Source: Azolla caroliniana
Taxonomy: Eukaryota; Plantae; Polypodiophyta
Direction of reading: 5' to 3'
Assembly (NCBI GenBank): GCA_043228905.1
Contig: JBHGNT010000009.1
Coordinates: forward strand, 18,662,001 to 18,726,000
DNA length: 64,000 bases
The position numbers were made by a program, and so were the translations under genes. This document shows positions 1-49,326 of the stretch, one piece after another. The notes under the pieces were generated by a model. That model did no database searches and had not been told where the DNA came from. It was given only the letters and a program-made list of their open reading frames with translations. Positions within the stretch are counted from its first letter, which is position 1. Each line of letters begins with the position of its first letter.

Positions 1-318
1 CTGGATGTAGCTTAGCTCCAAATTTGGCCTTGACGTTGAGGTATTCATGGTGAAAGAACCGTATACACTCGATCGAAGAAATTTTTAGGGCGTTCTCTAA
101 CCAATTGCCTTCTTGCTTCGGCTAAATGTAATCCACCAATAATGAAGTAGTTATACTGATCATGTTTGCAAACATCAAAATCTTCCAATGTCGCACACTC
201 CTCTGGATCAACCATTACAATGAATGGTACTACTATCGCATGATGATTGATCTTCATTTTCTTTTTAAGGTTTTGGACGTGTAACTTATGAAGTTCTCTA
301 ATTTCAAGTGGATGACAT

Positions 319-745
319 TGTTACCCGTAATAATATACGAGCAAGCATAAGGGGTGGAACACGATAATGTGGTTGATGTGTATGTGTAATGTGTGAGGAT
401 GAGTATGTGTATGAACACATGCACATTTGTGTGCATGTGTACAAAAGTGAGAGAGTGGGTAAGTAATGTAACTCCCTACTTGTCCCATTCTTTTGTAATG
501 GTTACCTCTTGTACTATATAAACCCCACCCATGGGGCATAATGTGATATAGCTTTTTCCCCTCTCATTTTTGTGTCATTTCTTATTTTCACTCTCCTTCT
601 CTCTACCTCACACGTAACCCCCTTGGGAGGGGGGTAGAGCCATTCTAGGCTTCACCCCCCACCCATTAACAGACATCTAGTCCTCTCGTCCATCAGTGGT
701 CAGTGGATGTGTGTGATAGGGAGATTAAAAACATGGCCCGTTACG
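319..745. mobile_element. Probable solo LTR inserted in the ParB-like ORF
   Basis: Starts TGTTACCCG and ends CCCGTTAC(G); TATA-like and CT-rich interior. The host frame (DNLEEAS|HPLEIREL) is plausibly restored on removal. TSD is imperfect (GACAT/GACTG). Confidence 0.5.
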
Positions 746-794
746 GACTGGCTTCCTCTAAATTATCTCCCTTCTAATATTATTTTGCTCTGAA

Positions 795-1570
795 TGTCAC
801 GGACACACCAAGCGCGGACTAGGACGAAGCACAGATGATGGGGCTACGAGTGACAAATGAACTTGGAGCTAGATGTGACGAGGCTAGGAACTCTAGATGT
901 TGGGAGCGACATGAGCGCATGAAGACCAAAATAAAGATCAAGGAGACAAAGATGAGGCGAAACGAGAATACTAGATTGATGTGTCAATGACTTGTGATGA
1001 ATCCCTTGAAAGGGACCAAGGATGTTACAAGTATTTATACAATTTCCAAGATTGAATATCTCTAGAATATATACTCGAGAAATATCTCGAGAATATATCA
1101 CAGAATAATTCTAGAATATACTAACGACTAGAATATTCTCAAATGTACTATACACTAGAATCTACAAGGATGTCGCTCCCAAGGATGTTGGGAGCGACAT
1201 GAGCGCATGAAGACCGAAATAAAGATCAAGGAGACAAAGATGAGGCGAAATGAGAATACTAGATTGATGTGTCAATGACTTGTGATGAATCCCTTGAAAG
1301 GAACCAAGGATGTTACAAGTATTTATACAATTTCCGAGATTGAATATCTCTAAAATATATACTCGAGAATATACTTGTTTAGAATATACCACAGAATAAT
1401 TCTAGAATATACTAACAACTAGAATATTCTCAAATGTACTATACACTAGACTCTACAATATATACAAGTTCACAATCAAATGTGGACAGTTCACAAGAGT
1501 TTCCATATGGTTAAACAACACAATGTACTATGTGTGTTAAAAGTTACAGGTTCAAGTCTAGAATGTGACA
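795..1570. mobile_element. Solo LTR with internal ~290-bp tandem duplication
   Basis: TGTCAC...GTGACA termini; perfect 5-bp TSD CTGAA (790-794, 1571-1575); ~896-1165 is repeated at ~1183-1455. Confidence 0.9.
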
Positions 1571-2516
1571 CTGAAGACTATACACCAGACGTTAATTCTA
1601 CCCCTAGTATTGTCCGTAGCTGCCCCTAGGATGATGACTTTGACATCTTCGTTACCTTTTTCTTCGATGGCCTCGACTGTGTGGGCCCTTTCTTGGGTGT
1701 TGCCTTCACAAGGGAGGGGGATGGCTCTCTCAATGTGACATGACCTTGAATATATGGTCGCAAAGTCACGATCAAGTTGCTCGTTGTCTCAATTGCTAGC
1801 TTGAAGGCCTTAAGTCCACAAGCTTCTTTAACCAACCTTTCCTCCGAGACAAACATTTTACGTACACCCATAGATGTTTCTATTAATAAAATGAGCTTTT
1901 GCGAATCAGGGTCTTCATAATCCAATCGCAATATGCGACCGTAGAAAAAACGTCGTTCTTTAACTAGTTGGCCATCACGCTTAGCTCGAGCAGTAATAAA
2001 TATAACTTTTTTACTCGAGTCGACGTACTGCATCGCCCACTCGTAATCTGTGAAGTCCTTGTCAGGCAAGTTTTCACCCCCCCACTCCTACCACCACTTT
2101 CTTCTGGGTCACTTCGTTAGAAGGTTGCTGAACCACATCTTCCTTGAACATCAACTTTTTTCCTTTGCCCTGATATGTAACAATGGGCAGCTTTCCAGCA
2201 TCCTTTGGCGAATTTTCATATTTAATTATAATCTTTTTAATTGGACGTTCCTCCTGAAACTCTCTGGACCTAGTGTAAAAGATAAAAAATGAATCAATTA
2301 GTATCAATTTCACAATAAAGATTGATTTTTAACCATGAAGGGAGAAAGTTATGTGGATAGAGCTTTGTGGAAAACAAAAAAGTGTTGAATTTAGGGTATA
2401 AGATATGTAAAATTGTGAACAATTTCTCCTCAAATTTTCGTCAAATCTTGATATATTTTATCAAGTTTGGGTTAGAAATCATCAAATTGTATCGACTTTT
2501 TACCTAAATCAGGGGA

Positions 2517-2771
2517 TTCGATACAATGTATCGAGATGTTACCCAAACTCGATACAATGTATCGGGTTTGTATGCCAACTCAATACAATGTATCGAGTTT
2601 GGGTAGAAAATGCTCTAACTCGATACATTGTATGGAGTTGGTGCCATTTTGGCTCAAACTCGATACAATGTATCGAATTGGTGCCACAACTCATTATAGT
2701 GTATCAAGTCTATGCAACAACTCGATAAATCGTATGAGTTGGTGCCCCAACTCGATACATTGTAACTAGTT
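2517..2771. repeat. Array of ~8 copies of a 23-bp palindrome AACTCGATACAwTGTATCGAGTT
   Basis: Copies start near 2517, 2546, 2577, 2617, 2657, 2688, 2719 and 2749 (period ~30-40 bp); degenerate copies at ~2447-2496. Confidence 0.9.
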
Positions 2772-5346
2772 TGGGCAGTGTTAGGTGAGTATACAATGAT
2801 GAAACGTGTGAGAAAAATATAAAAAAAGAAAATTGTTCGTACAACTCAAGATCCTAACTTGGATTCTGTCCTCTGGGTCTTCCTCGATGACATGGTGGTT
2901 GATTGGGATGGGTGTGGTACACATGCTTGAAATGTTCTAACTGTTGTGGGTATGAATGACTGAGGTGCTCAAGTGCTCTCAGGTTCTCTCTTGTACTCTC
3001 GTAGAGAGAAAATGAAAAGGTCCACCTATTTATAGGGAAGGAAGTAAGTCAGGTTAGTTAGTGGTAACCATAGTTGTAGAAATAATACAAAAAGTACATA
3101 CACATTTAATATTTATAAATAACTATAGTTAGTTATAGATTTTGACCTAAAAGAAGAAACACACTCATGATCTATATTTAATTTGTCTAGACATTAATTG
3201 ATGTTTACTTTTAGATTTTAAATTAGACTTACCTCATTTATGTATACTTCATAGCTATCCTATAATCATTGTATAAATCATTTATAGCAATAAATTCAAG
3301 GTATATCAAATTCTCTACATTCTTTTTTATTTAATTATTAGACTTTAATACTTCCATTTATGATAAAGTCGAATTATTGAATTTAAACACTTTCTTTGTA
3401 GGTAAATTAAATTTCATTGATTTGTTTTTATTTAAGCACACTTATTACTTCTAGATATATTAAATTTTAATTATTGATTATTAAAGATTTATTAAATGTA
3501 TATATCTTTGTTTATTAAAGATTTATTTGCTTAAATAAAAAATTGTGTGGATAGATAGATAGATAGCTTTAGTAACTATTCCTATTTTAGATCTCTTAGT
3601 TTTGAGTAAAGTAGACTACTTTTAAAAAGAACAAGTGCTTTGAGAAATGAGTGAATACTCAATGTCAATAGCCTGCCCCTTTTCTATTGACGAATACAAT
3701 ATGGATTCGAAATGTTGTCAAACACCACGAACTATGGAACTGAGTAATGAGTTCTCAGTTGATGAGTATGACAACAATGAATTTTCTAACCATGATGTCC
3801 AAGCAAAAATAGTTAATGAAGCCATTGACTATCAAGTAAAGACAAATGTTAGTAAGGTGGATGATGATACCAATATATGTAAGGAAGACATAAAGACCGC
3901 TAGTCCAATCCAATTCAGGAGAGTTCCACGACGAATATGGTGAGACCGGTTCAACTTGGTGACATCTTATAAACAACTAACATTAGATGTGTTGAAGTCC
4001 TGTTGTCTCGTGGATGTTTGCCAATGTTGGGGAAAGCTAAATTACGTAAGTTGAAATGCCATTATTTTTCACTCACTGGTGATGAGCAAGACACATGGTG
4101 GTGACACATATGCAAATGGTCTCCTACAAATCTTCCCAAATTTCAGTCTCCTTTGAGTATTACCTAAATGGTACACAACAATGTTGTAGAGTGGCATTTA
4201 AACTTTCTTTATGTGTTATCAATATGAGATTACATAGAGTGCAACAAAGAGTTCTTAATGGTGATATTAGTATCAATGGCAATTACGTTCCAAGTATGAA
4301 AGGAGCAGCCAGAAGAAATGCAAATCTATGGATGAAAAATTACTTTGAGCTCAATTGCGAAGTAATGCCAACTACGTGTCGATTGCATCTCTCAGATAAC
4401 TACACGCGTAGAGAAGTATATGATGCTTACAAATCCGATTTGATGACCTCAAGCGAGAAGTATATCACATATAACCAATTTACAAGAGTGTGGACTACGC
4501 AATTCTCAAACGTTATTGTACCTCGCAAAGTCCGTATGGGTTATTGTTCAATATGTGCAAACTTGAAGAGCATGGCTAAAGGCGCCAAGACAACCAAAGA
4601 AAAAGACAACCATAAAAAATTGTTACAAGAACATTGTGAAGCTCAAGCGTTAGAGCGAAAGAGTGCAATGGTTCATAGAGATAAATCACTGAATAATCCA
4701 GCTCAATAAATGTGTCTAATGATTGATGGCATGGGTAAGAAGAAAATGTGTCTACCACACATGAGGAGACTTCCTAAAGATGTCAATGATGAATGTCTCA
4801 TACAGATGCATGTGGTCGGTTTCTTGGCTTATCATGGGACGATTAAACCCCATGTCTCCATTACATACCCTAACGTCCATAATGACCCCATCCTTACGGT
4901 TACTGTGATTCATAGGGTTTTGATGTGCTGGGGGCTGCCTTTGCCTCCTGTACTCTATATTCAATTGCATAATACTATTAGGGAAAATAAGAATTCAATT
5001 GTTTTTGAATATTTTAGTATGTTGGTGAATCAAGGTGTGTTCAGGAAAATAAAGGTGAATTTCCTTCCAGTTGGTCACACCCATGACCATATTGATCAAA
5101 TGTTTAGTACATTCTCAAGGCAGTTGTCTCCTCATTATGCTTTCACCTTACCTAGGCTGGTTAATATCATATTTGATGCATATACACCACGTCTTATAGT
5201 GGTGCACCTAAAGGAGATTTATGACTTCAAAAGATTCATATCAGATGGTGGAGAGGACAAGTGTAAAGTGTTAGCCCAACTAAATAATATGAGTTTCAAT
5301 CACATTTTCTTAATAAAGAGAAATGATTTAACCAATTCTACATTAT

Positions 5347-5659
5347 TGTTGAGAGATCAAGCTCAACTTAGTTTAGTTAGTTAGTCAACACATGTAACCT
5401 AGTAGTTACCTAGATAGAATCTAGTTAGTGTGTTGACCATAAAGCCTTGAATAAGATTTTGTACTCAAGTGGGATACATTGTAGATCCACCACTCCATGC
5501 TCATTTAATATAGTACTTACACGTTGTACCTATATTCTCCTAGCACATGTGCACCCTTGCACATGAAACCTATATATACCTCATTGAAGGTATTTTTGTA
5601 TTTGATGATGTTTTATAATATACACTCTAGTTTACTCATCCCCCATCTTGTGTTATTCA

Positions 5660-5723
<64 letters not shown>

Positions 5724-5800
5724 ATATCACATAATCTTCCGCGCTTAACTTCGTCACATAATTAGGTACTAATTAACCTTTACCTACCTAATTCTTAACA
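5347..5800. mobile_element. Solo LTR
   Basis: TGTTGAGA...TCTTAACA termini; perfect TSD ATTAT (5342-5346, 5801-5805); contains (CT)n(CA)n. Confidence 0.9.
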
Positions 5801-6372
5801 ATTATTAAATGCAAAGTAGTATTCGTCTTCTCCATGTTCGGAGCTTAAATGTGGTTGTCAATCTTTGCTCCATATGCCATCTGCTACAACTTATGGCGCA
5901 GAACAAATGCCAATTGAGACTAAAAAGGAATTGAATGGTCTATTAGTAGATTAACAAAAGAGTTATTGGATACAAGCCTTAAAAGATAAAAGGAAGCATA
6001 TTGATAATGCAAAGAAGTATGTGGCACAAGAAGATACATCATGGTGGGATGACTTCTTCCTTGATCAAGAAAATATTATTGATAGTTGTGTAGCTAGTAG
6101 TTGGGCTTTAGAACCTCCATTTACATGGTCTATACAACAATTAGTTGGCTCACAAACGTCAGTTCCTGCACCCAATGTCAATCTAGAGAAATTGCTTCAT
6201 CCACAACAAAGAGACATCTACATGGGACCAAGGTTATAAAAAACAGCAAAATCTAGGTGGCAAGGAAATTTACAAGAATTGAAGGTTTGGTATGTTAATT
6301 GCTACTCCTGTAGATGTAAATGACCTCATCCACCAATTCTAGATTGATAAAGTGTTGGATGTGGTGATGCAT

Positions 6373-7102
6373 TGTCGCGGAAATTCACGTGTGTGTATCG
6401 GATAGGACGAGACCACGGGGGTCTTGGACTAGGGAGTAAGAGGAGGGAGAGAAGCTTGGGAGTTCAACCCAGAAGGAAGAGAAAGATTAAGATGCGAGAG
6501 ATTAAGATTCAAGAGAATAAGATCTAAACAAGACAAGATACATTATGGAAAACACCACACCAATTACAATCATGGCCATGTAGGCCGAATGTAAACCCTC
6601 TAGATGAAACCCTAACCGGATAGGGGAAAAGAAGAAGAAGACGATGAATGAAACCCCTAAAACGAGATCCTAAAACCCAAAATTCTGAAACCCTAATGGC
6701 AACCCAAAGAAACCCAAAAGTGGCAGCCCCTCAAAAGTGACCCCTCACTCCCTTTTATAGTAATAAGGGGTGAGGCACATTACAAAAGGGAGTGGTCAAA
6801 TCCCCTTTCTTTCAAAGGAGTGTATTTGACCTCGATCTTAGGAGGTGAGATTGATGGGTCTTAACTCCCTCTCCTCTCACCCACATACTCAATGCCCACT
6901 ACTACCTACACCCATACTTCATGTGCCTCCCTCTAGTCTACAAAGTGCACATCACCTTTATACCTTTACATCTTACTTTTCCTCCTTACATTTGTCTATT
7001 ATTCCTATGTTACAATTTTCCTAAGTTCATGTGCAATGTTGCACATCTTGTTTTATTCCTTTGGCTCGGGTTTTCTCACCATGGCCGAAAATCCTCACGA
7101 CA
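6373..7102. mobile_element. Solo LTR
   Basis: TGTCG...CGACA termini; 4-bp TSD GCAT/GCGT (one CpG transition); transposase frame restored on removal. Confidence 0.8.
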
Positions 7103-7989
7103 GCGTGAAGACCAAAACAAGATTGACACAATAAAGGTGCATTGGTATAACACTAAAAGTAAAAATGCAATTACTAGGAAATATACTTTAGCGATGTTAG
7201 AATGCGCAAGATCAAGGGGTAATAGAAAGCAAAAAAGAAATATCCGAAATACATCACCCTGAACATTAATGAAGTGGATATTATTGTGTATGACTTTACA
7301 TTGACAAAAGTTGGGTGTTTAAGAAAGTCAACTATAGATATAATCCAAGAAAAATTGATTGTTGGTCAAGGTGTCTCTAATCAAAGGAGAACAAGATCAG
7401 CAGCTCATGATTTAGAGTCACACAATATGGTTTTAGATGAAGATAATGATTTGATTGGAATATCTGAAGATGAAAAAGATCAATCACCTTTGTATATTAG
7501 TGATAGTAGCAATGACAACTTGTAATACACTGAGAGACGTATATTTTTGCATATAGATGTAACCAATTCATTTTTGTAAAAACTCGAGTGATATAAAAGT
7601 TATATTTATTTTGATCCATAAACTCCTTCAATTCTTATTGTTCTCTATACCATTAGTTCTCATTTTCCGAACACAAATATGTGATGTTGCTTTTCGAATT
7701 TGTCCCAAATTTACGAATATTTTAAAATGGTGGAATTTTAAACATCTTTTTGAGAATATGTGATACTGGTATCAACGTGTTTTGTGAAGTGGATGTAAAA
7801 ACCACAAAAATTTAGGGAATATATTCCTTATCCTTCCATTCATGCGCGATCCTTCCATTTGTGAACGCACGTGTTGATAGATAAAGAAGAGTTTTTATTA
7901 AAAAACCAGGGATAACCCGATATTACAAAGGTGGTACAAAGATTCATTACATGGAAATCTACTTGTTGTACATAGGTACCAGTGTAAAT

Positions 7990-16690: not shown

Positions 16691-19600
16691 TTGCAACTTA
16701 TGAATGGTCTAGAAAACCTTGTATAATGACATGCAACTTGTGAATGCTCCAAAAAACCTGGTATAATGAAATTCAATTTGTTTAGAAGGCCATGCGTTAC
16801 AAGGGGTTTATAGGTCATTTTGGCCTTTTAAAAAACCTAAAGAATCTTTTTTCTTTGTTTAAAGATTCTCTACTCTTTTGGGGAAGAAAGAGTTGTATGT
16901 TACCGGCCGGCAAAGGAGTCCAGAGTGGGAAACGGAGAGCTAATTAAGTAGTAGGAATGTGGTTGTAATTAAGCTATGAGTGTGGACGGACGGACCGGAA
17001 TCGGTATGCCATTCCGGATCCGGACCGATCCCGAACAGGTGCGGATGGCACCGTTTTGTAATATAGACCGGAAACCTATTTAAAGGCCTGGATACAATGT
17101 AATAGTTAGCGGTTAATTAATGAAAGCTTAAGCGTTGTTATATCTCTGTCAATTGCCGTTCTGTCTTAATTGTATATCTTACGCGTGTTATGAAGACGAT
17201 CCTAATAAGTAACTTAACTAAGTCGGATTAAGCGTTGAAGTCTAATCCGGTTGCCGCAACACCCTTTGGTGAAGTGTCTCACGTAGACACCCTGTGTTAG
17301 GCCATTGTCCGGCCCGAAGAGTTAACACAGTTTTTGGCGACCACGATTCCTGTTTTTGCAGCGAACGACGGCACGGATGGATGTCTAGATCAACGCACGA
17401 CCTGGTTACAGATCGAACTCGACGCCTTACCGAAAGGCAAAGGAGACGCGAGGCTTTCCAGCAAGCGGTGCAGGAAATTAGAGCGGATCGCTCGTTTTCC
17501 AACATAATCCGGAGAGTAGCGGAGGACTCCTACTAGTTACAGCAAACATCGCACCCGGACGACGGCAGCAGCCTAAGCAGCCTCCGGGAAACCGAATCCC
17601 TTCTCCACGCGTTGGCAAATGGAAAAGGCGAAGCAGAGGCCTTTTCAGCATATGAATTGGACTCCGAAGGGTAATACAGCGTGCACACGAACTACCGTAG
17701 CAGCAACGAAACCCCGGGCAGACCGGAGGACGAAGGATCAGATACCTTACCGACACCGGAACCGGAACCGGAAGTGCTAACGCTGGAACCCCCGGAACCA
17801 GCAGAAGAAGAACGACCTCCGACACCGGAAGTCGAGGAGGAGAGGCCTCCGTCACCAGCGGAAGAGAAACAACCGACACCGGAATCAAATCGGGAAAGAC
17901 CACTGACATCGGAAAAAATTCCGGAACGAGCACCAACGCTACCAGCCTGCACACCGATACTAGACGACGACATGCCGTTCCAGTACTCCAAGTATAGAGA
18001 TGATCCGGACGCGGAAGCTCATGTGCACGCATTTGAACAGACATGGGAAGCCAACCATGTGTCCCAGCGACTGACACCGGAGGAAGAAGAACGCTCTAAG
18101 ATAGCAGAGTTTGGCGTCACAGTGGAGGGACCGGCAGCAAGATGGCGTCGGACGCAGGACCCGTCTACCATCAACACCTTTGTAGATTTAAAAGCTAAAT
18201 TCATGCATTTCTTTCAAAAGGAGATGGACCAGACCGTAATGGTAGGCTTATTTTATACTATCCGGCAAGAGGCAAGGGAGAGCATTCCCCAATTTGTCAT
18301 CCGGTTTCAACGGATGCACAGTCAGCTTACCCGTGCACCCCCAGAGGAGGAATTACGGACGATATTCCTAAACGCGCTCCGGGAACCCCTACGCACGGTT
18401 TGCACGGTAATCGATTTCCGTACAAGTACCATCGACCAAGTCATTGACCGGGTGAAAGAGATGGAAAAGACAAGCTCCTGGCTCACACTGGGCGCACTTC
18501 AACGGGCGTTACCGTCCGATGAAGACCTCCGGTTTCGGCAAGCAATACAGTGCACAACCTGCTTGAATTCCGGACACTCGGCTCTAGAATGCACTATGAG
18601 GACGCAATGTGTAATCTGTCAGTCCAAGAGCCATACGACGGATAGGTGCGAGTATAATCTGTTGACTCGGCAAGCACCGCCCGTCCGACAAATTGAGCCA
18701 CGCAGCAGCCGGGATGAAGAAGACGAACGCTGGCGGCGAATGGATCGTGACCGACCGGCACAGGATGTCTAGTATGGCGAGCGACGGGAAAATGATGTCC
18801 GATATGGCGAGCGACGGGAAAATGATGTCCGGTACGGTGATCGGCGAGATAACTATGACCGGCATGATCGGCACCAGGATTACAATAGACGATACGAACA
18901 GTACAACCGGGAGCACTCCCCCGGGTATCGTCAGCAACGGGAGGAATACGGCCGATATAACGGGCAACCCCGTCAAGAGTACCGTAATAAGAAGAGCTTT
19001 AACAAAAAACGACATTTTAAAAAAGGCGGCTACCCCCGGGATCCGGAACAAGGCGCTCCAAGTAGCCAACCGGTACAAAACCCCGCGCGTACCGCAGGAC
19101 CTGCCCCGGGTACAACAGACAATGCCGAATCTAGCAATGCCTGGAAAACCTACTGCTACTACTGCAGACAGGAAGGCCATTATAGTAACCAATGCCTGGT
19201 GAAGAGCTATGAAAAACGACCGGCGGTAAATATGGTAGTCCCTGAGGTGGCAGACCTGCAGCAGGTGACCACAAGATCGAAGGGCATGGCCAAAGAATGG
19301 GAGACACAGGAGACCATCCGCAAACAAGCAATGGAATGGGTAAAGAAAGCAAATGAGCAGAATGTCACAGACTTACAGCAGCAAAAGGAGAGCACCGCAG
19401 GGCTTGCCGGCGGTAGTCACTCCGAGAACGAGACATGGCAAGCGTTGCAAGAATGCCAGATTACGTTACCACTAGGAAGACTCCTACAACTCGTGCCTAG
19501 ATTCACGGAAGGACTGAAGACGGCCATGACGGCAGGAGAACCATCACCGGCACCGGTACTCTTCTCGAATCCGGAAGAGGGACCAACAGTGGTAGACACC

Positions 19601-20764
19601 AGCAGTCCGGTAATCACTGCCATTGTAAAAGGGAAAGAACTCCCCGGCACAGTTATAGACGGAGGCTCTGGGGTAAATGTAATAAGCCTCCGGACGTGTG
19701 AGGACCTAGGAATCCACGAGTGGGAGCCGTGTCCGTTCTGGTTGCGGATGGCCGATACAAGCTCAGTGCGGCCGACAGGATTAATACAGAAATTAGAAGT
19801 CACCGTCGGCGGGCATACATTTCACATCTCGGTCGTAGTGCTACAATTACAGGCACAAGGCGCATACCCACTATTGCTGGGGCGGCCATGGTTGAAAACG
19901 GCACATATCAAACAGAATTGGCGAAAAAATATAATTACCTTCCGGCGAGGAAAAGCCAAGGTACGGGTACCAACACAGCCAAGGACGAGCACTGGCAAAG
20001 AATGTACACCGTTGTATGCGGAATGTGTCAACATGCTCGAAGGGTTAGCGGACGAAGAAGAAGCTCAATACCTGCAGGAAAACCCGAAGATCATACCCCT
20101 CTTCGAAATTGACATTGCCGAAGCCGTAGCACCGTACTTACCGCAACCGGAAGAGGCGGAAGCAGAACCGGATAAAGACGCAATCCGGGAGTTACGGCAA
20201 GCGCAGGAAGCGTTGGAAATGGCCGTTTCACAGCGCGTGAAAGCATCGCAATTGGAAGATGTGAATTTAGGCACGAAAGACGAAGCAAAACCGGTGCACA
20301 TCGCCAAGGAGATGAAGTCCGGAGACAAAACGACGATGATAACACTTCTCACGGAATTTCGCGACGTATTCACCTGGTCATATGAAGACATGTGAGGACT
20401 CGACCCTCAGTTATACCAGCATCAAGTGCACTTGAGCAAAGACGCAAAACTAGTGGCACAAAGACGGTACCGAATGAATCCCAATTATGTTGCCAAGGTC
20501 AAGGAAGAAATCGACAAACTGCTAAGAGTTGCCTTTATCCGTCCGGTAAAGAAAGCGACATGGCTGAGCCCGATCGTAGTCGTACCGAAGAAGAACGGAA
20601 AAATTCGAGTTTGAGTGGACTACCGGAAACTCAATGCGGCTACGGTAACGGATGCATTTCCACTTCCGTTCACAGATGGAGTGTTGGATGTCGTCACCGG
20701 CCATGAGGTCTATAGCTTCCTAGACGGATTCAGCGGATATAATCAGATCCGGATGCACCCCGAC

Positions 20765-23700
20765 TGTTGGAAACGAGGTCGTCAATGCGGAAGATCAAGA
20801 AGCATTCGATCCTTGCTGAATACCTGCGTATGACAGTTTCTATGTCGTTGCACAGAGAGAGAGTGAGAGAGAGAGAGACACACAAAAAAACTCTTTATTC
20901 CAAGAGACAAGAATACAACAATCCAACCTCACAAAAAGGTTACAAGGTCACTATATATAGTGACCAACTTAGGGCAACTACCCTTTATGCTAATTACATA
21001 GATGGCCAAAACGGGATAGCGTGAATACGTCCATTATACACATGTATTCGACACTCCCCCGTAATGGGCGTGTACATGGGTTATCTAAGATTACAGGTAT
21101 AGACTTGGGTTCTCGGACACATCCGCTTTGTTCGAGTCGGCAGGGTCCGAAGGCAGAAGACCGAACTGGTCGGGTCGGAGCAGTTGAAGCCGATCATTAA
21201 GGAACTGATGTCGGTTGTCGGGAACCATCCTGCTCTGTGTCCGGCTCTAACCGGATTGGTTTGTCGTTACGCCCATCTGATGCCGAAGAGACCGAAAACG
21301 GTCTGTCGAAAGACACTTGGTCATTCCATCTGCGACATTGTCGGTTGTGGATATTTTCTCTAGACCGATTTTCCCTGAAATGACGCAGTCCCGAACGAAG
21401 TGATATCGAACGTCGATATGTTTGGAGGCGTTGTGGTGAACCGGATTTTTCGACAAGGCAACAGCACCTTGACTGTCGCTGTAGACAACTGGAGCCGAGT
21501 CATGGTCGACTTGTCGAAACGTGTGCGCCAGCCGACCGAGCCACAAAGCTTCTTTTGCTGCGTCGGACGCAGCTACATATTCTGCTTCGGTCGTTGAGGT
21601 CGCTGTGCACTCCTGAAGTTTCGACTTCCACGAGATTGCTCCATTGCCGAATTTGAATCAGTATCCGGTTGTTGATTTCCGACTGTCTATACAGCCGGCG
21701 AAATCCGAGTCGGTGTAACCGACTACGCCTGAGGTTCGGTTCGGACCGAAAAGAATGCCATGGTCTTTTGTGCCAGCCAGATATCTGAACACATGCTTGA
21801 CTGCGTTCCAATGCGATCGGCCAGGATTGTGCATAAATCTGCTAACGACTCCTACGGCATGAGAAATATCAGGCCGTGTCGCGACCATCAGGTACATAAG
21901 GGAGCCGACTGCCGGTGCATACGGTACCGACTTCATATCTTCCCCCTCCGGGCCGGATGTCGGGCAGTCTCGCTGAGAGAGCCGAAGATTCATTGGGAGC
22001 GGGGTTGAAGCAGATTTGGCTGATTGCATGTTGAAGCGTTCCAAGACACGTCCGATATAGTCGGTCTGAGACAAAAAGAGATGTCGTTTATCGCGATGCC
22101 GACTAATTTTCATGCCAAGGATGTGTCGTGCCGGACCGAGGTCCTTCATGGCAAACTTCAACCGCAGTTGCCGAACGAGATCGGCAAGTTCGCCCGCGTG
22201 GCGTCCAGAAATTAGCATGTCGTCCACGTAAATGATGAGGAAGATGGGTGATCCATCTTGAGCTGTGTTGGTGAAGAGACAATGGTCCTCATCGCTTTTT
22301 GAGAAGCCGATCGATTGGATGAAGTCGTCGAACTTCTTGTACCATTGTCGCGGTGCCTGTTTGAGGCCGTATAGACTCTTCCTGAGTCGGCAGACTAGAT
22401 GTTCTTGGCCAGGTGCCACGAAGCCTTTTGGCTGCTCCATATAAATTTCTTCCTCGAGATCACCATGGAGGAAGGCTGTTTTGACATCTAGCTGAATCAG
22501 CTCCAAGTTGTCGGCTGCCACTACGCCGAGTAGAAAACGAAGGGTTGTCATTTTCACCACTGGTGAAAAAATCTCGTCGAAGTCGACGCCATATTCTTGT
22601 CGGAAGCCCTTCGCAACTAATCTGGCCTTGTACTTTGGGGTGGTCGAATCAGACGTCTCTTTTAGTCGATAAACCCACTTGCAAGGAAGAGCACGTCAGT
22701 TCCTAGGTAATTCGACTAGATCCCAAGTCTTGTTTGCTCGAATGGAGTGCATTTCCGACTCCATCGCCAGATGCCAGGTGGCGGAATCGACAGATGTCGA
22801 TGCTTCGTCGTAAGACGTCGGTTCGCCGGCGTCGGTGAAGAAGATTCCAGGAGAGTACCTCTCCGGAGGTTGCGACAGTCTCTCGGATCGTCGAGGTATG
22901 ATTGGACTGGTCGCATCGGGTATCGAGGTCGGATGGTCCGAAAGCGGATTGTTCTGCTGTGCCGAGTCGGAGTTGTCCGAGTCGGTAGTGTAAGGTTCAG
23001 CTACCCGTGAAGCTGACCGTGTGTTGAGAGCGGGGCCTTCTTGAAGGGTCGGCACATCGGAAAATGTTACCCTTCGGACTTCGATCGGTTTTTCGACTGA
23101 TGGATTCATAGCCGACTCGTTGAACACAACGTCCGAACTTCGAACGATTTGCCTGCGTTCGGGGTCCCAGAGTCGGTATCCCATTTCGCCGTCGGATCCA
23201 TATCCAAGGAAAATGCATTTCCTGGACCGAGGTGCAAGTTTTCGGCGATCATCTTTCGGAATAAGGGCGTATGCCTCGCATCCGAAGATCCTCAGCTTGT
23301 CGTAATTCGGCTTACTGCCGATCCATAGTTCCTGAGGAATTTGAAGTCCGAGAGGTCTACTTGGCGACATATTGATTATGTGTACTGCCGTGAGTAGAGC
23401 CTCTGCCCAGAAGCCATCCGACAGTCCGGAGTGTTGGAGCATGGAAACTATCCGTTCTTGGATTGTCCGATTCATGCGTTCGGCAATCCCGTTTTGCTCC
23501 GGACTGTGTGGTGCCGTAAATTCACGTCGAATGCCGCGTTGTCGGCAGAATTTGACGAATTCTTCGGATTTGAACTCTCCCCCATTGTCTGTCCGAAGGC
23601 ATTTCAGCTTTCGGTCGGTTTGATTTTCTACCATGGCGAGCCAATCGGTGAAGATCGGGAAGACCCGATCTTTGGTGCGAATTGGATAAGCCCACACCTT

Positions 23701-26209
23701 TCGAGTCGAATCGTCAATAAAACTGACGAAGTAAGAGGCACCGCCGAGAGACTGATGTGGCATTGGGCCACAGACGTCCGAGTGGACCAAATCGAGAGAT
23801 CTCGTTTCTCTTGGTGCTGATGTCGGGTGTGATGCGGCTGCTTGTTTGCCATACTGGCAATGCTCGCAGAATTGATGGTCGGAGAAGGAGAGTTTGGGGA
23901 TGTATCCGGCTCTAGATAGGTGCGTGATGCCGGCCTTGCTGAGGTGTCCTAATCTTCGGTGCCATAGTGATGACACAGGAATATCCACCAAAAACAGGTT
24001 ACCCTCTCTGAGCGTAACATGTAACGGATACAGTGAGTGTATCTTGGGTCCTCTAGCAAGCAGGAGGTTCCCCCTGTGGAGTGTCCACCCTCCCGAAGAA
24101 AAACCGGCACGAATGCCGTCTTCATCTAGTTGTCCGACTGAGATCAATGGCCTTGAGAGCTCGGGTACATGTCGGACATTGTGGAGTACAAGTGTAGAGC
24201 CACCTGCAAGGTTGAGCTCTACTGTGCCGATTCCGATGATGTCACAGTGTTGTGAGTTGCCGACTCGAACTGAGTCGGAGTGACGGATCGTATATTGCCG
24301 AAATTGGGATCGATGAGGAGTCACGTGAAATGACGCGCCCGAATCTAAGAGCCATGTGCTCGATTCTTCAGTCGTGAGTAGAACTTCTGATCCGACTGGA
24401 TTTTCGATTGATAGTATATTCGGGTCGTCCGGTAGTACATCAGCTGAGAAGCTGACGTAATTGATCTCCTCATGCCGGCCACTCTTCTTGTCGGATCTCT
24501 GAGACTTGTCGTTCTTGTTCTTGAGTGCGCGGCAGTCGGCTTTGATGTGTCCGGGTTTCTTGCAATAGTTGCAGATTCGGTTATCCCGTGACTGGCTCCG
24601 TCTTCGCTGATTGTTCGGCGGTCGTGAGGAATCTCTTCCTCGTATGTTCGATCGGTCTGTCGAACCTTGTACTACGTAAGCGTCGTCTGTTGAGTCTTTG
24701 GCAAAAGACTTTCTCCGAGCTGCTTCGGTCAGAATTGCGCTCGTGACTTCGGAGTATTTGACAGCCGTGGTTGACGCGTTGCACACAGTTGTGACGAAAG
24801 TTTCCCATGATGAGGGAAGGCTACTCATGAGTATCATTGCTCTGAGTTCATCCTCGATTGCCGTCCCCTGAGATGAGATTTGGGAGCTTATACTTTCGTA
24901 CTCATTGAGATGTGCTTGGACCGAATCGGATTCTTTCATCCGCAAGTTGTAGAGGCGCCGGATCAGAAACATCTTCGTTGCAGCGACCTTCTTTTCGTAA
25001 GTGTCCGACAGTGTTTTCCACAGTTTGAATGCTGTCGTACACGATTGCACCGTAAAATATACCGATTCCGATAGGTGCATCCGAATCGTGGCGCGGACGA
25101 TTCTGTCCAGCTTCTGCCACTCAATTGGTTTGTATCCTTCTGGAGGTTCTTCATTTTCGATGGGATCGATTTGCCCCTTGACTATGAGATAGTCCTGCAT
25201 TTGCTCCTTCCAGAAGTTGAAGTTCGATCCATCGAACTTTCGTAGACTCATTTCCGACGAGCCGGATGTTGATGCCATCAAATTTGGTTTCGGTTGACGG
25301 AGCTCGGTTCGGAGTTGACTACGAACCTTGTTGGAGTGCAGCCGGTTGGCTCACCCGATATCGTTCTAGTTGGATTTGAACCCGAGTCGGTTCGGCTTCG
25401 GAACTTGCTCGAATTGACTTCGGTAGCTTGAGGGACAGAACCGACTGGTCTTCCCGAATGTTGCCGAATACCGATTATTGAAACCGATTATCTGGACCGA
25501 TTCTGCTTCGGTTGACTGCAGCAACGAGAGAGACGGATCCAACTGATCCTCCCGAATGTCGATCAGCCAGATGAAGCACGAATTTGGGGTTGTTGTTTTA
25601 AGACCGATCTGCACCGAGTGGTTACAACGAGCAGCGAGCAGCGTTTAATGACCTTTTCGGATGCCGTTTAACCGAATGGAGCACGATCGTGTCAATGATG
25701 CACAAGGGGATTTCACCTCGAGCGGTTACGATCACAAGGAACAGAGTACAACCTGATGGCTTACTCCAAGCAAGATGATCTAACGCGATGAGATGCAAAC
25801 CTGGTTTTTTTTTTTTTCCTTCTTCTTCTCTCTTCTTCGAATGACGCAGGAAACCGAATGCAGAGACGACGGCCGACAGCGGATTGAAGGACCGACTACT
25901 GTGCAGGCTCTGATACCAGATGTTGGAAACGAGGTCGTCAATGCGGAAGATCAAGAAGCATTCGATCCTTGCTGAATACCTGCGTATGACAGTTTCTATG
26001 TCGTTGCACAGAGAGAGAGTGAGAGAGAGAGAGAGACACAAAAAAACTCTTTATTCCAAGAGACAAGAATACAACAATCCAACCTCACAAAAAGGTTACA
26101 AGGTCACTATATATAGTGACCAACTTAGGGCAACTACCCTTTATGCTAATTACATAGATGGCCAAAACGGGATAGTGTGAATACGTCCATTATACACATG
26201 TATTCGACA
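20765..26209 (-). mobile_element. Full-length Ty1/Copia LTR retrotransposon nested in the Gypsy RT
   Basis: 289-bp LTRs 20765-21053 and 25921-26209 differ at ~2 positions; TSD CCGAC (20760-20764, 26210-26214); PBS TGGTATCAGAGC (iMet) at ~25907-25918 on -; PPT GGGGGAG next to the left LTR. Confidence 0.97.
21247..25281 (-). pseudogene. Copia gag-pol (gag, CCHC, PR, INT, RT, RNase H) with two in-frame TGA stops
   Basis: CNYCKKPGHIKADC, WLLDSGAS, HRRLGH...CEHC, RTDNGGE, YVDDML, KHIDVRYHF. Stops at 22696-22698 and 21658-21660; the frame continues through both. Confidence 0.95.
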
Positions 26210-28815
26210 CCGACGACCAAGAGAAAACGGCATTCGTCACCGAATGGGGGGTGTTTGTGGCCGTGGTGATGATGTTCGGACTCAAAACAGCACCGGCAAC
26301 GTTTCAAAGAATCATCATGGAAATCTTTGGTGAATATATACCGGCTTTTATGCAGGTTTTCCTTGACGATTTCGCCGTCTATAGCCGGGAGGAGGACCAT
26401 TTTCAGCATCTCCGTCTTTGTCTAGAAAAGTGTAGAGCGTACCGGCTAAGCTTGAATCCGGCAAAGTGTGTATTTGGCGTGTCCAGTGGAACTTTATTAG
26501 GACATATCGTAAGCCAGGAAGGTATAGCAGTCGACCCGGACAAAGTGAAAGCCATATTAGAAGCACCGGCGCCGGCGCTGGCAAAGGCATTGAGCCGGTT
26601 CTTAGGCCAGATCCGGTGGCACAGCCGGATGCTCCGATACTTGGCCGACCTGGCTACACCGTTGCATGCCGCCGTACATCGGACACCATTCCAGTGGACC
26701 GATACTGAGGATAGGGCGTATAAGGCCCTCAAGGTACTATTATCGCAGGCACCGGTAGTACAACCTCCGGATTGGAGTAAAGAATTTCACGTGTTCGTGG
26801 ACGCCTCCGACATCGCAATCGGGAGCGTACTGATGCAGCTTACGGAACCAAAGTGGTACCGGCCAGTGTACTATGCCAGCCGGAAGCTATCCCAAGCAGA
26901 ACGGAACTACTCTACTACGGAACAGGAAGCTCTAGGAATGATCTACAGTGTGACAAAGTTTCGGCACTATTTATTGGGAAGGAAGTTTTCCTTCCATGTA
27001 GATCATTCAGCACTCCTTTACCTGGTGTCCAAGGCGTCACTCACCGGCAAATTGGCCCGGTGGACCTTACTATTACAGGAGTTCGAGTTTGAAATATTCC
27101 ACCGACCCGGTATACAGCATGCCGTAGCGGATTACTTAAGCCGATTGGAGTTCGGAGAGACGGGTGACGGAGTACTGGATGAGTTTCCGGATGCGGAGCT
27201 GTTTCAAGTCACTACGGAGACGGTAGCAGATGAGACAGTGGCCCAGGAAGACAAGGAACTGATACTGAGGGAAGCCCACTGCGGAGTTGCCGGAGGTCAC
27301 TATGCCGGAGATGTGACAGCCAGAAAAATATGGCAAAGTGGCCTATGGTGGCCAACGACATTAAGAGATGCGGTACGGTACGCAAAAGAATGTGACCTAT
27401 GCCAGAGAATGGGCCAGCCAACGGAGCAGGCTCGTATGCCACACCAGCCGGTACTACCACTCGAACCATTCCAAAAGTGGGGGCTGGACTTTGTAGGACC
27501 GTTCAAGCCACCGGCAATGAGAACGGGTAATCGGTACGTTATCATTGCTACGGATTACTGCACGAAATGGGTGGAGGCCAAAGCTTTACGGGATAACACC
27601 GCTGCGTTAACGGCAAAGTTTCTATATGAGTACATCTGGTGCCGTTACGGATGCCCCATTGAATTGATAAGTGACCAAGGGGGGCACTTTCTCGGACAAG
27701 TGGTGGAAAGCCTAACGACCTTCTATGCCGTGGTCCACAAACGAAGCACACCTTACTATCCACAGGCGAACGGATTAGCGGAATCAACAAACAAGACGCT
27801 CCAGAACATCCTTCGGAAGATCGTCAACGAGAACCGGACGGATTGGGACACAAAGCTACATAACGCGCTTTGGGCATACCGGACGGCATACAAAACGAGC
27901 ATCCGAACAACACCGTTCCGGTTGGCGTTCGGACTCGAGGCAGTCATGCCGGTAGAATTTCAAGTACCTAGCTTACGGATTCAGCTACGAGAACGGCTGA
28001 ACGAGAAGGAGTCGGAGACAATAAGGTTGATAGCCCTGTGTGAGCTGGAGGAACAACGGTTGGCCAGCATCCTACATTTAGAATTAGAGCAACGGCGACG
28101 GAAAGAATTCGTCGACCGGCACAGGAAAGGTAACGAAAAAATGTTCGCAATTGGCAAACCAGTGCTAGTATTCCAAACCCGGATGGGCAAGATGCCGGGT
28201 AAACTAAGGTTTAGATGGACCGGACCATATTGGCTAACACGGGAGTATAATGGGTCCTACCAGTTGGGGACACTTGCCGGCGAAGTGCTGGGCAAATGGG
28301 TGAATGGATTCCGGTTAAAGGCATATAGAGGACCGATGCCTAAGAACCCGTTTGAGCAAAGGACTGACGGCAACCACGAAGACGGTAACCGGAGAGAATG
28401 TGGCCGGTAAGGGTCCGGGAGGACCAACGGACATATGACGTCACACTAATAATAATAATAACTGAAAAAAAAAAAAAAAAAAACAATCATGCAAAAGCGA
28501 GGAATGAATGGATGAAAGAGCGTGGAGCGAAAAGGTACGTAGTGGGCATTTAAAGTGCCACCACAGGACATAATGCTATTTTAAGTACGCGACATGCACA
28601 AACTCGAAAAAGGCGCCAGAATGCACAGACAAAAACCATTGCGCGTAGAGACCCTCTATTTTCGCGAACCCAGGAGCACAGAAGCACCGAAACGCTGCAA
28701 GATTATCAAAAGAGAACCTGCGCACAGAGAACCCCCGCCTTCTTAACTCTCTCTTTCTCAACCCCGCTCTCATCACCATCCATCCTCGCCACCGCAGTCC
28801 AACCCCAACATAGAA

Positions 28816-31590
28816 ATGGACCCGCAAACGCTGTCGGAAGCCGCCAAGACATGGCTGAAGCAACACGGGCTCGAGGGCTTCCTGATGATGATGGAAGTAC
28901 CGCCACACAAAGAAGCCGACAAAGTGATCAAGGAAATCGATACAGAGGTCATAACGGCAGAGGCGATTCGAGCGTTAACAGGCCTTCCGGAGGGAGGCAT
29001 ACTCACGATCGACAATCCAACCCCGGAGCAACTCATCAGGTATTTTGGTGAGTACTCTCTAGCCAGCAAGGGCTACCGGACACAGAGCGGCAGAGATATG
29101 TTGTTCCGCGAAATTGCTCGTGTGCTCCATGAATACGGCCACGTATACCCTAGACCCCCTGTCATGCCGCAGAACCGGGCAGGGATGATCATCGCCACCT
29201 ATGAAGGCATCAAGGTGGATTGGCCGGTATTGATTGCAGACGGGTTGTGTGCGGCGATCGAGATCGTCAGAGGCAAAGACGGCAAAGAAGGCCGAGACAG
29301 ACGAAGGATATGGCACGCCGTAACGCAGTGGCTCACCCTGCTGGTGCCACCCGTTCAGACCGTCCAGCCCAAGAAGCGAGGAAGAGTGTCGGACGGCACC
29401 CCAAGGACGGCTTCCAAACGGCAGCAGTTGTTGGCCTCTAAGGCCAGTAAGGGAAAGGCAGTGGATGCAGACCAGGCGGCAGCAAGAAGTGGCAGCCGGA
29501 AGCGCCCAACGGAGGTGCAGGAGGAACCACCGACACGACCCGTAAAGGTCACACTCCGCCGACCGGTGAATCGAGAAGTGGACCCCTTGGCGGCAAAACT
29601 CAATGTCGGAGCTCAGGAGGAGGAAATAGAGGAGGAGCCTACGGAGCACCTCCAGCGACGGTCGTCGGCAAGGACCGTTGAGACAGCCGGGAAACGTTCG
29701 GACCCTCAGACGGAGGGAACACTGGCTCCCCATACCGAGACTCCTACGCCAAGGAAGGAACCGGAACCGGTGCAGAAGGAACCGGAAACAGAAGCCCCGG
29801 CACCACCGGCAACACCGGCAAGTCCCATTCCGCCAAAGCCGGAAAGGTCACTACAGCCTCCCTCGGTCAGCCAAGAAGAAGCGCAAGGGGACCAAGGACA
29901 GCAGGATGGTCCACGGGCAGAAACGGAACTACAACTCGGCGCAACCAGGCGGGACCACCCCTCTACAAGTGAGCCCATCTATCAAACCTCCATGCAAGCA
30001 CAACAAGGCACTGGTAGCCTGTGGCTCCGGTGGATAGGCGAACAGATAGCCGGAGCAGTGGGGTATATAGAGGCGGAAGAAAGAGCGCAAAGCGAACGGT
30101 TGCTCGTCACAACCGAACAACTAGAGACGGCCCGGTCCAGAATCCGGTGCCTTGAAAAAGATTTGGATCAGGTCACGACAGAGATGGCTAAAATACGGAT
30201 CCAATCACCGGTGACTCCGGTAAGTGTACAGAATAATGAAACGGAACGACCTGCACATAGGAATAAGACCCCGGCAACGGAAACCGTTCCGGCGAGAGAT
30301 GCGGCGCAAGCTCGGGAGCTTGCAGAATTGAGAGAGGAACTTGCCGCACAAGAAGCACTAAGGAGCCGTGAACGAGAATTGAAGACGGTGGCCGAAGCCG
30401 AATTAAAGAAGACTGCTAAGAACCTCCGCCGGGCAGAGGAGAGCCTCCGAAAAGGCCATCAAGCGTACGACCGGCTAAAGGAGGAGAAAGAAAAAGTGCT
30501 GCAGGAAAAGGACAAGCTGCGGAAAACGGCGGAAACAGAGATAGAACGGCTAAAGGAAGAGCTCCGCCAACAGAAGGACCGCGAGGACCGGGCCCGTCGT
30601 CAGATCAACGCACGGCTCAAGCAAAAGACGGATGATTTTGAGCACCTGCACCGGGACTACAAACGGCTAGAAATAGAGCATAAAGAATGGATGGCCGAGC
30701 TCCAGCAGGCAGTTGATCGGGCCGCAACGGCGATCGCCGACGAACGGGCGGAAAATACAAGACGCTTGGAAGAGGTGGAGAAGGTCCGGATGGAGCTCCA
30801 GAAGCAGCAGCAGGAAGACAAAGAGAGAGCGTCTACAATATTGCAGAAATTACAAAGTACATATCAAAGGCAACTGACGCATTACAAGGCGCAGGCGGAG
30901 GACAACGTAAAAATCATCAAACAACTGAAGGAGGAACGGCAAGCGACAGAAACCAAATCGCAATTGGGAACGAGCCGGATTCAGTCCATCCTCCGGGCAT
31001 GGCTGAATCAGACGAAGCACTTGATTGATGAAAGCTCCGTAAAATGGTGGACAAAGTGAGCACAAAACGCGGCGGAACTCCAGTTGATACGGGCGGATGT
31101 GGCAAACCGGCGGAAGGAAGGAGATGACTGTTATACGCTATCTTCCGAGGACTTCACCGCCATACGGGACGAGCTGGCCGACGACTTCCAAGTCCTAGCA
31201 GATGAACAGCTGGCGCAGGTCAGACAGCTCGTAGCTCAGCTGGACGATGATAGGCTGGACGCTCAAATCCAGTTTGAAAGCTACGAGCGGTCCCGGGTAC
31301 GGGAAGAAAAAGGGCAGGAAGCGACAACGGTTAACCTTAGTGATGAGGAACCGTCGTCGGCTGAGGGCTAGCCGGGAACCAGTCAACCGGAGACCGCCAC
31401 GACGCAGGGAGCAACGACGGAGACGCCGGTGTCAGAGCCACAAACGGAGGAGCAGCCGCAGCAACCACCAACGGACCCGCCGCAGCAGACAGCAACAGAG
31501 CAGCAACAACAACAACAACAACAACCACTTCCAAATGAACCATTGGAGCCTCTCGAACAGAGCATTCTGGACATTTTGGACGAAGAATAG
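28816..31590 (+). pseudogene. Gypsy extra ORF downstream of pol (~924 codons; globular N-terminus, Pro/Glu-rich linker, long coiled coil, poly-Q tail)
   Basis: The 747-aa ORF continues in the same frame through stops at 31057-31059 and 31369-31371 to TAG 31588-31590, ending ~55 bp before the 3' LTR. Confidence 0.8.
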
Positions 31591-48547: not shown

Positions 48548-49326
48548 ATGAACTTTAGATAATAGAGGATCTTCTTCTTCTTCTTCTTCTTCTTCTTCTT
48601 CTTCTTCTTCTTCTTCTTCTTCTTCTTCTTCTTCTTCTGCCTGCGTCCTCTCTCTCTCTCTCTCTGGTATGAACTTTAGATTAATAGAGACTAATGTTTA
48701 TTGTCTCAATAAAAATCAATAAAAATCCGCAACTTTTAACAATGATCCATCTCGTCATATCAATAGTTATTTCCTATGGTTAGGAAATTACTACATATCC
48801 AACGTTGATGGCCAGAGCATTTTCCGACTCTATTAATGGCTAAATCATTCTTATATTTCCCTCTACGGAAATTTACAATGGCTTGCCTAATATCATTGTT
48901 GCTTTTGTTAACTACGAATGTTGCTCGTACTTGTCTCATGTTTTCTTCTTTTGATTGCACCTATGGTTCCTTGATGGTGTGGGATGATACACCTTCAAGC
49001 AATTTATTTTCCTTCAAGCAATTCGTTTTCCACCATCCGATCACTCACCACATTGTTTTGCTTTTCTTGAATTCTTTGTTCTCTCTTAGCTTCTTGGTTT
49101 GCTCTCTTGTCATGCCTTTTCTAGGCTTTCATTGGTTTTAGTTGTTGAGTTCTAGATGAAGTAGATATACCACCAAATTCTTTTACTAGTCCATCAAAAC
49201 TAGTATTGCTCTCCTCTTTAAGGGCAAAAGTTTGGGAATTATATTCATGTAAAATCTCATTGCCCAACAGGTCATAACTAATATGTATGGGTTTAATGAT
49301 GCTAGTGATTGTTTTGAACTGATGGT

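Follow-up and report, generated by a model that had tools for sequence, protein, structure and literature searches.

Gene content of the Azolla window

The DNA analysed here, hereafter the window, is a 64,000-nucleotide stretch of the genome of the fern Azolla caroliniana (GCA_043228905.1, contig JBHGNT010000009.1, positions 18,662,001 to 18,726,000 of the forward strand). Positions 1-7875 hold a decayed, truncated copy of a ~9.3-kb family of Sola-like DNA transposons, broken by four insertions resembling long terminal repeats (LTRs). Members of this family carry two genes head to head, a transposase and, on the opposite strand, a gene (gene 2) whose predicted product joins a ParB-like domain to a DNA methyltransferase and whose first intron contains an array of palindromes. 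The following parts were recognised in the window copy, including a terminal inverted repeat (TIR) and the target site duplications (TSDs) of the insertions.

7842-7875: transposase-side TIR, matching that of intact copies (36 bp) at 89%; its counterpart at the far end is missing
3647-7525, + strand: transposase pseudogene, Sola-like DDD type (DUF7869), matching PF25273 on 4710-5381 (E 9e-44); a single exon in intact copies
2894-3646: AT-rich spacer separating the two start codons, 753 bp, GC content 0.26
2859-2893, - strand: predicted gene 2 exon 1, 35 nt, ATG at 2893; length and GT donor as in the young-copy model
2270-2858, - strand: predicted gene 2 intron 1, with GT...AG ends in the sequence
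2518-2768: palindrome array within gene 2 intron 1, six units TCGATAC-N3-GTATCGA, candidate binding sites
1576-2269, - strand: 5' part of gene 2 exon 2, coding for a beta-rich N-terminal domain and a disordered linker, 64% identity to intact residues 75-225
1-794, - strand: continuation of gene 2 exon 2, coding for the predicted ParB/Srx-fold domain and the beginning of the helical domain, 77-86% identity to an intact copy
319-671: solo-LTR-like insertion 1, TG...CA ends, TSD GACAT
795-1570: solo-LTR-like insertion 2, TG...CA ends, TSD CTGAA, with a tandem duplication inside
5347-5800: solo-LTR-like insertion 3, TG...CA ends, TSD ATTAT
6373-7102: solo-LTR-like insertion 4, TG...CA ends, imperfect TSD GCAT/GCGT

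A first-pass annotation of the window, made from the letters alone, had described a transposase diverging from a minus-strand ParB/Srx-like gene across an AT-rich spacer of ~750 bp, once four solo LTRs were removed. This outline holds: the transposase is a real match to DUF7869, the minus-strand gene has its ATG at 2893 with the peptide then quoted in frame at 45-320, and spacer and insertions are as listed above. The spacer would act as a bidirectional promoter. The window transposase aligns to residues 35-924 of an intact 926-residue relative. After excision of the insertions by script, the aligned parts contain six stops in the transposase and six in gene 2, with frameshifts in both, and the earlier description of the two genes as similarly decayed is therefore fair.

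The ParB part of exon 2 is interrupted by the insertion at 319-671 and extends ~80 bp beyond the window start, where gene 2 breaks off near residue 443-472. A search of the 120 kb upstream of the window recovered neither the methylase half of gene 2 nor the far TIR, and no palindrome of the array type occurs at window positions 8001-64000. Both methylase exons and far TIR are present in a close relative on contig C14, which shares 74-84% DNA identity with the window copy. A separate gene 2 fragment (L103, on G000:C9) lies ~11.8-12.8 kb upstream of the window in the opposite orientation to the window copy; it belongs to a younger subfamily and has 82-91% DNA identity to young copies.

A young, high-copy family with common termini

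Searches of the genome (523 Mb) gave 1083 and 970 candidates for two pieces of gene 2 and 1466 for the transposase core, the best 150 of each being scored. We fetched 57 copies from the best gene 2 matches, a sample that leans towards intact copies because of this choice. Both TIRs were present in 45 of the 57, and 42 of these 45 were flanked by a 4-bp TSD of varied sequence, in agreement with the cut-and-paste element with shared termini proposed in the first-pass annotation. The transposase stands head to head with gene 2, methylase exon included, within the common TIRs of all 45 copies, which rules out chance juxtaposition. The TIR of intact copies is 36 bp long, and an exact 26-mer from it has 645 matches in the genome against none for a control. 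The family numbers hundreds of copies, and the median divergence of young copies from their consensus is 0.4%.

The transposase frame is open in 11 of 18 young copies, and the intact relative (926 residues, a single exon) matches PF25273 with E 1.8e-51. The motifs DGMD, LDN and GHTHxxxD occur in 71, 73 and 76 of 78 homologues, respectively, and probably correspond to the DDD triad. Together with the TIRs and the 4-bp TSD, these DDD-type motifs are traits of Sola1, the superfamily we take DUF7869 to represent. Within positions 5-30 of the published Sola1 profile (PMC5751038), 'fdlqkvlslP' resembles IDGMDQKKTCLP, and the following 'fyykrk' has no clear counterpart.

Gene 2 is predicted to encode a ParB-methyltransferase fusion

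Gene 2 was modelled with six exons and five introns, predicted from GT-AG ends and conserved positions. The resulting 974-residue frame is whole in 12 of 17 copies, has premature stops in three and does not fit the model at one donor in the other two. The FSGxG codons are followed by a GT in seven of eight loci examined, including the distant ~40% group of homologues. Along the predicted protein lie an N-terminal domain, a ParB/Srx fold, a helical region and a beta-class N6/N4 DNA methyltransferase (PF01555). The accessory gene is thus ParB-like, as first described, but that description was incomplete: the intact protein is a ParB-methyltransferase fusion encoded with introns. The first-pass annotation had overlooked these introns, the methyltransferase continuation in intact copies and the palindrome array at 2518-2768.

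An AlphaFold model of exon 2 had a mean predicted local distance difference test (pLDDT) of 70.6. In Foldseek it matched ParB 6sdk and Noc with E 1.8e-5; each of the ten rows listed with E up to 0.001 was ParB or Noc. Structural comparison with VIA gave Z 10.1 for PadC (root mean square deviation, rmsd, 2.9; 99 aligned), Z 9.2 for KorB and Z 8.7 for pNOB8 ParB (rmsd 4.3; 206 aligned), the last spanning the ParB and helical parts. The model resembles ParB, Noc and sulfiredoxin in these comparisons; the earlier guess at the fold was therefore right, and gene 2 is predicted to contain a ParB/Srx fold. At the sequence level, Pfam ParB_N did not match gene 2, and the PHROG ParB match had an E of 0.073. 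A homodimer is also predicted for the ParB and helical parts: the model scores 0.54 (best of three controls, 0.00), with at least 47% of contacts common to runs and pLDDT of at least 73. Of 30 known dimers, 21 attain the mark used for such scores; of 23 monomers, none does. The score obtained here may come from solved ParB dimers memorised by the prediction model.

The N-terminal domain (L063:6482-6880; window ~1720-2087) folds confidently (pLDDT 82) and had no Foldseek match. A SANTA domain (M18BP1) was considered for it and not accepted, the best VIA comparison (Z 6.2, rmsd 4.8, 104 aligned) being below the trust level. Atlas features of the ParB-like region (L063:6962-7939; P0053 100-330) are nearest to fungal DUF3723 clusters, with scores of 0.95-0.96, and also to ParB_N clusters. 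DUF3723 occurs in Starship papers, and no paper in the literature searched mentions both DUF3723 and ParB; as a lead only, DUF3723 may be a ParB-like domain. One homologue of the helical region (P0087) is fused to an N-terminal sterile alpha motif (SAM) domain.

The methylase comprises exons 4-6, with DIPYG in exon 4 and QKP and DLFSGTG in exon 5, that is, the beta-class order with motif IV ahead of motif I. Exon 5 alone passes PF01555 (E 3.7e-8; 34 bits against a cut-off of 26.7), and homologues reach E 7.8e-19 with the same profile and match PHROG DNA methylases down to E 1.5e-27. The nearest solved sequence is the adenine methylase DpnA (E 5e-5), and a profile search against PDB sequences returned methylases only, as weak matches. 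Across 80 metagenome loci, motif IV reads DIPYG in 44 and DIPHG in 9; DIPY, DIPH, DAPY, DFPY, DLPY, DVPY and one DPPY were seen among homologues, the canonical form being (D/N/S)PP(Y/F). DxPY variants of this motif can be active. An aspartate in motif IV leans towards N6-adenine, a rule with exceptions, and N6-adenine would be the likely base modified.

Among pairs below saturation, the ratio of nonsynonymous to synonymous substitution rates (dN/dS) was 0.02-0.04 on the ParB and methylase exons, compared with 0.05 in the core of the transposase; many pairs were saturated, and a distant pair gave 0.08-0.38. Purifying selection acts on both sets of gene 2 exons. A captured host gene is ruled out because this selection spans element families.

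A palindrome array in intron 1 and its retention in gene-less derivatives

An array with the consensus CGATRC-N3-GYATCG lies inside gene 2 intron 1 in 43 of the 45 copies with both TIRs. Young copies have 2-14 units, spaced mostly 51-52 bp apart, and the length of their intron 1 (652-1164 bp) varies with array size. The palindrome pattern has 3509 sites in the genome, against two for the reversed control. In 11 units picked by hand across diverged families, the CGAT core and the inner C-G are the same throughout and the three central bases vary. Changes are compensatory across families, with 6 of 12 pairs altered on both sides; pair covariation was 0.44, a value inflated by relatedness, compared with 0.17 after shuffling and no more than 0.10 after sliding. 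CpG changes numbered 14 in the arms and 25 in the centre across 347 units, too few for use.

Forty loci were picked by a lone exact TIR. Seven of them were short elements with a second TIR at the other end, and the array was present in four of these. The three gene-less ones among these four belong to one multi-copy family of ~3 kb that has lost both gene cores. Four further gene-less members, detected with a non-palindromic probe, all have TIRs, a TSD and 5-9 units. The array is therefore kept in seven of seven amplified ~3-kb gene-less elements found without the palindrome as query, a count from which 18 palindrome-selected loci were excluded. The inner probe (101 bp) also matched another repeat: 16 of the 20 places fetched, with neither array nor TIR pair, were dropped, and the four at 100% identity were the short elements.

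This non-autonomous family (L290, L311-L314, L238-L254; e.g. G000:C3:18763212-18766446) has TIRs, a 4-bp TSD and the array, retains the 3' tip of the transposase and also contains a stretch of another repeat. Because five copies are identical over the probe, it must have moved recently.

Distribution and linkage in other genomes

A profile search retrieved 751 representatives with E up to 0.001, and PF01555 was detected in 8 of 34 long representatives scanned. Named homologues of gene 2 come from Chara, Riccia, Adiantum, Ceratopteris and Ginkgo, the closest being Ceratopteris proteins (60-61% identity), and ParB-methylase fusions are present in Chara, Riccia, Adiantum and Ginkgo. Eleven of the 80 metagenome loci have at least 3 kb upstream, and ten of these show the head-to-head transposase. 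One locus (L119) spans a complete element that has a 37-bp TIR of its own. In Riccia, R1sor_010795 (DUF7869) adjoins R1sor_010796 (ParB-methylase); these are neighbouring locus tags and indicate adjacency only. No further neighbouring tags were found in a search with shorter proteins, and a pattern scan of viral contigs found no relative. A distant AT-rich group (L104-L115, L164, L168) encodes Ginkgo-like proteins with DIPHG as motif IV and the same intron positions.

Other elements in the window

An apparently intact hAT transposase, a 764-residue open frame with a C17orf113 zinc finger and a hAT dimerisation domain, is encoded at 49318-51609 (+). A GC-richer block at 17675-31056 contains nested LTR retrotransposon frames, Gypsy-like at 17675-20392 (+) and 26176-28407 (+) and Copia-like at 21661-25350 (-); a 770-residue frame at 28747-31056 has no Pfam match.

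Proposed function and alternatives

On balance, and without great confidence, we favour a reading in which the ParB-methyltransferase fusion acts on its own element. A dimer of the predicted protein would likely occupy the palindromes within the first intron of its gene and methylate nearby element DNA, likely at N6-adenine; this methylation would favour expression or mobilisation of the element and of its gene-less derivatives. Array retention in the derivatives, set against the single junction match that each of two array-less deletion copies gave, favours a role in cis, resting on one or two deletion events.

Several observations weigh against this reading. Young copies show the decay typical of 5-methylcytosine (5mC), with C-to-T changes per 1000 of 12.3 at CG and 12.5 at CHG (~5 times the 2.7 at CHH; T-to-C, 1.15), and no clearly methylation-protected sequence context is seen in their decay pattern, so any shield would be incomplete or brief. 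The seven array-keeping derivatives probably descend from one deletion. Three short TIR-bounded copies have no array (L282, L285, L287), two of them with an intact TSD, and the junction searches scored just 40 of 933 and 40 of 357 candidates. The transposase lies downstream on the same strand at metagenome locus L144, the arrangement at L120 is partial, and only one of eight Riccia ParB-like tags is beside one of 26 DUF7869 tags (estimated chance ~0.015). Neither array nor transposase was found on the short contigs of the distant ~40% group. As for the protein, Ginkgo-like members have DIPH in motif IV, and the GxxR arginine, which in ParB binds the triphosphate, is absent from all 78 motif matches, GGxH being followed by S in 58, T in 6, C in 5, L in 5 and others in 4. 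The CTP-dependent clamp of bacterial ParB, invoked in the first-pass annotation along with the fold, is therefore doubtful here.

The strongest alternative, which we nevertheless consider unlikely, is that the fusion acts in transposition itself: it would load on the array and bridge or compact the element, or license it by methylation, so that the transposase pairs the ends, protection from silencing not being the point. The amplified derivatives have nothing to express, yet keep the array; the host 5mC decay is unabated; and DNA coating and bridging are established functions of bacterial ParB and Noc. The Dam methylation state likewise licenses IS10 and IS50. Pure bridging, however, needs no such conserved S-adenosylmethionine-binding and catalytic motifs, and the array-less copies, two with their TSD intact, also speak against it.

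Less likely still, the array would consist of transposase sites or hairpins, forming an internal transposition enhancer, and the ParB-methylase would target its own promoter, the TIRs, host DNA or RNA. Many DNA transposons have repeated internal transposase sites, and the paired changes in the palindrome are as compatible with a hairpin as with a dimer site. The array was not found in distant homologues, whose contigs are short, and eukaryotic N6 methylases have often moved to RNA (PMC4738411). Against this, the array lies ~4 kb from either end and within the intron of the ParB gene, and an invariant core with a free N3 spacer suits a dimeric reader. Moreover, red-algal ParB genes in an unrelated superfamily likewise adjoin inverted-repeat arrays (bioRxiv 10.1101/2025.02.11.637652). 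It is improbable that the methylase has lost catalysis and that the protein serves only to bind DNA, as a repressor or reader limiting transposase expression from the shared promoter: DIPY or DIPH replaces DPPY, the ParB motif is degenerate too and DIRS1-borne N6 methylase domains have been termed inactive (PMC4738411), but from Chara to ferns motif IV retains its aspartate, proline and aromatic residue, and QKP and FSGxG persist, at dN/dS 0.02-0.04.

Returning to self-methylation from the array, we put forward a more specific form as a tentative possibility: that the Sola-like transposons of streptophytes (Chara, liverwort, ferns, Ginkgo) possess a eukaryotic addressing system of parS/ParB type, in which a ParB-methylase dimer on the 51-bp-phased array would write N6-methyladenine or N4-methylcytosine (4mC) on its own element and be required in cis for transposition. 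Gene-less derivatives would therefore keep the array.

Relation to known systems and significance

The first-pass suggestion of an undescribed module does not stand, the same architecture being in print for Sola1-1_Ec32 of Ectocarpus (PMC12477816). By description, that element resembles the Azolla family in being of Sola type, with a 4-bp TSD and AAC...GTT (AACCG) termini, and in its opposite-strand gene for a ~1000-residue ParB-like protein with an N4/N6 DNA methyltransferase; its authors propose self-binding and self-modification. It belongs to a brown alga, is 21.5 kb long and has a 282-bp TIR and two intact copies, and the accessible text does not mention a palindrome array (PMC12477816). 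The Azolla family, in contrast, occurs in a land plant, measures ~9.3 kb and has a 36-bp TIR, hundreds of young copies and the array in intron 1. In Plavaka (EnSpm) elements of the red alga Bostrychia (PAG2/PAG3), a transposon-borne ParB-like domain also adjoins tandem inverted-repeat arrays and an N6-adenine methylase lies within the same element, but the transposase superfamily differs and the fusions, ParB with a 2-oxoglutarate (2OG) oxygenase and methylase with SET, are on separate genes (bioRxiv 10.1101/2025.02.11.637652).

ParB-linked methylases are reported in phages and algae (PMC4738411). Phage fusions at ParB-terminase loci, such as Javan93_0016, combine ParB_N and N6_N4_Mtase in one chain, and their methylase is 24-29% identical to a gene 2 homologue. 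They differ in being prokaryotic, in keeping the GxxR arginine (GGHQR against GGNHS here) and in lacking the long helical region, the N-terminal domain and introns; the ParB parts do not align significantly (E 0.23). Bacterial ParB/parS and Noc share with gene 2 the nucleotide-binding fold followed by a helical domain, the dimer, predicted here, and the palindromic site array, whereas gene 2 lacks the GxxR arginine, has a fused methylase, lies in a eukaryotic transposon and has no ParA seen with it. The VANDAL transposons of plants encode VANC, an accessory protein that targets tandem motifs in their own non-coding regions; they are of the Mutator superfamily, and 5mC is lost under the action of VANC, whose motifs differ from family to family (PMC5735166). 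In the Azolla elements, by contrast, the core motif is conserved and gene 2 is predicted to encode a writer. Marchantia MpDN4MT1 and rotifer N4CMT are likewise bacterial-type beta-class amino-methylases of eukaryotes, but they are host genes with an SPPY-type motif, a 4mC product and no ParB, and are not transposon-borne (bioRxiv 2021.02.12.428880, PMC8885841). TET, SET and VANC are named as transposon cargo (PMC12730594), and land plants are said to have few N6-adenine methylases (PMC4738411). Our literature search, with Repbase Reports, subscription journals and the supplements of the Bostrychia preprint outside its coverage, found no land-plant report of this layout, which among the papers found is described in the two algal studies only.

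The Azolla family is thus a land-plant member of a recently described kind of element, to which it adds a young high-copy family, a defined candidate site and the retention of that site in gene-less derivatives. Until now, this ParB-methylase gene was known as a prediction, drawn from algal genomes in which intact copies are few. With hundreds of young copies, a candidate site shared across families and derivatives with and without it, the hypothesis becomes directly testable. If it is true, these transposons would supply land plants with DNA methylation of a bacterial type and possibly with a site-addressed epigenetic writer; the more specific form, if true, would mean that land plants harbour an active, transposon-encoded and sequence-addressed amino-methylation system.

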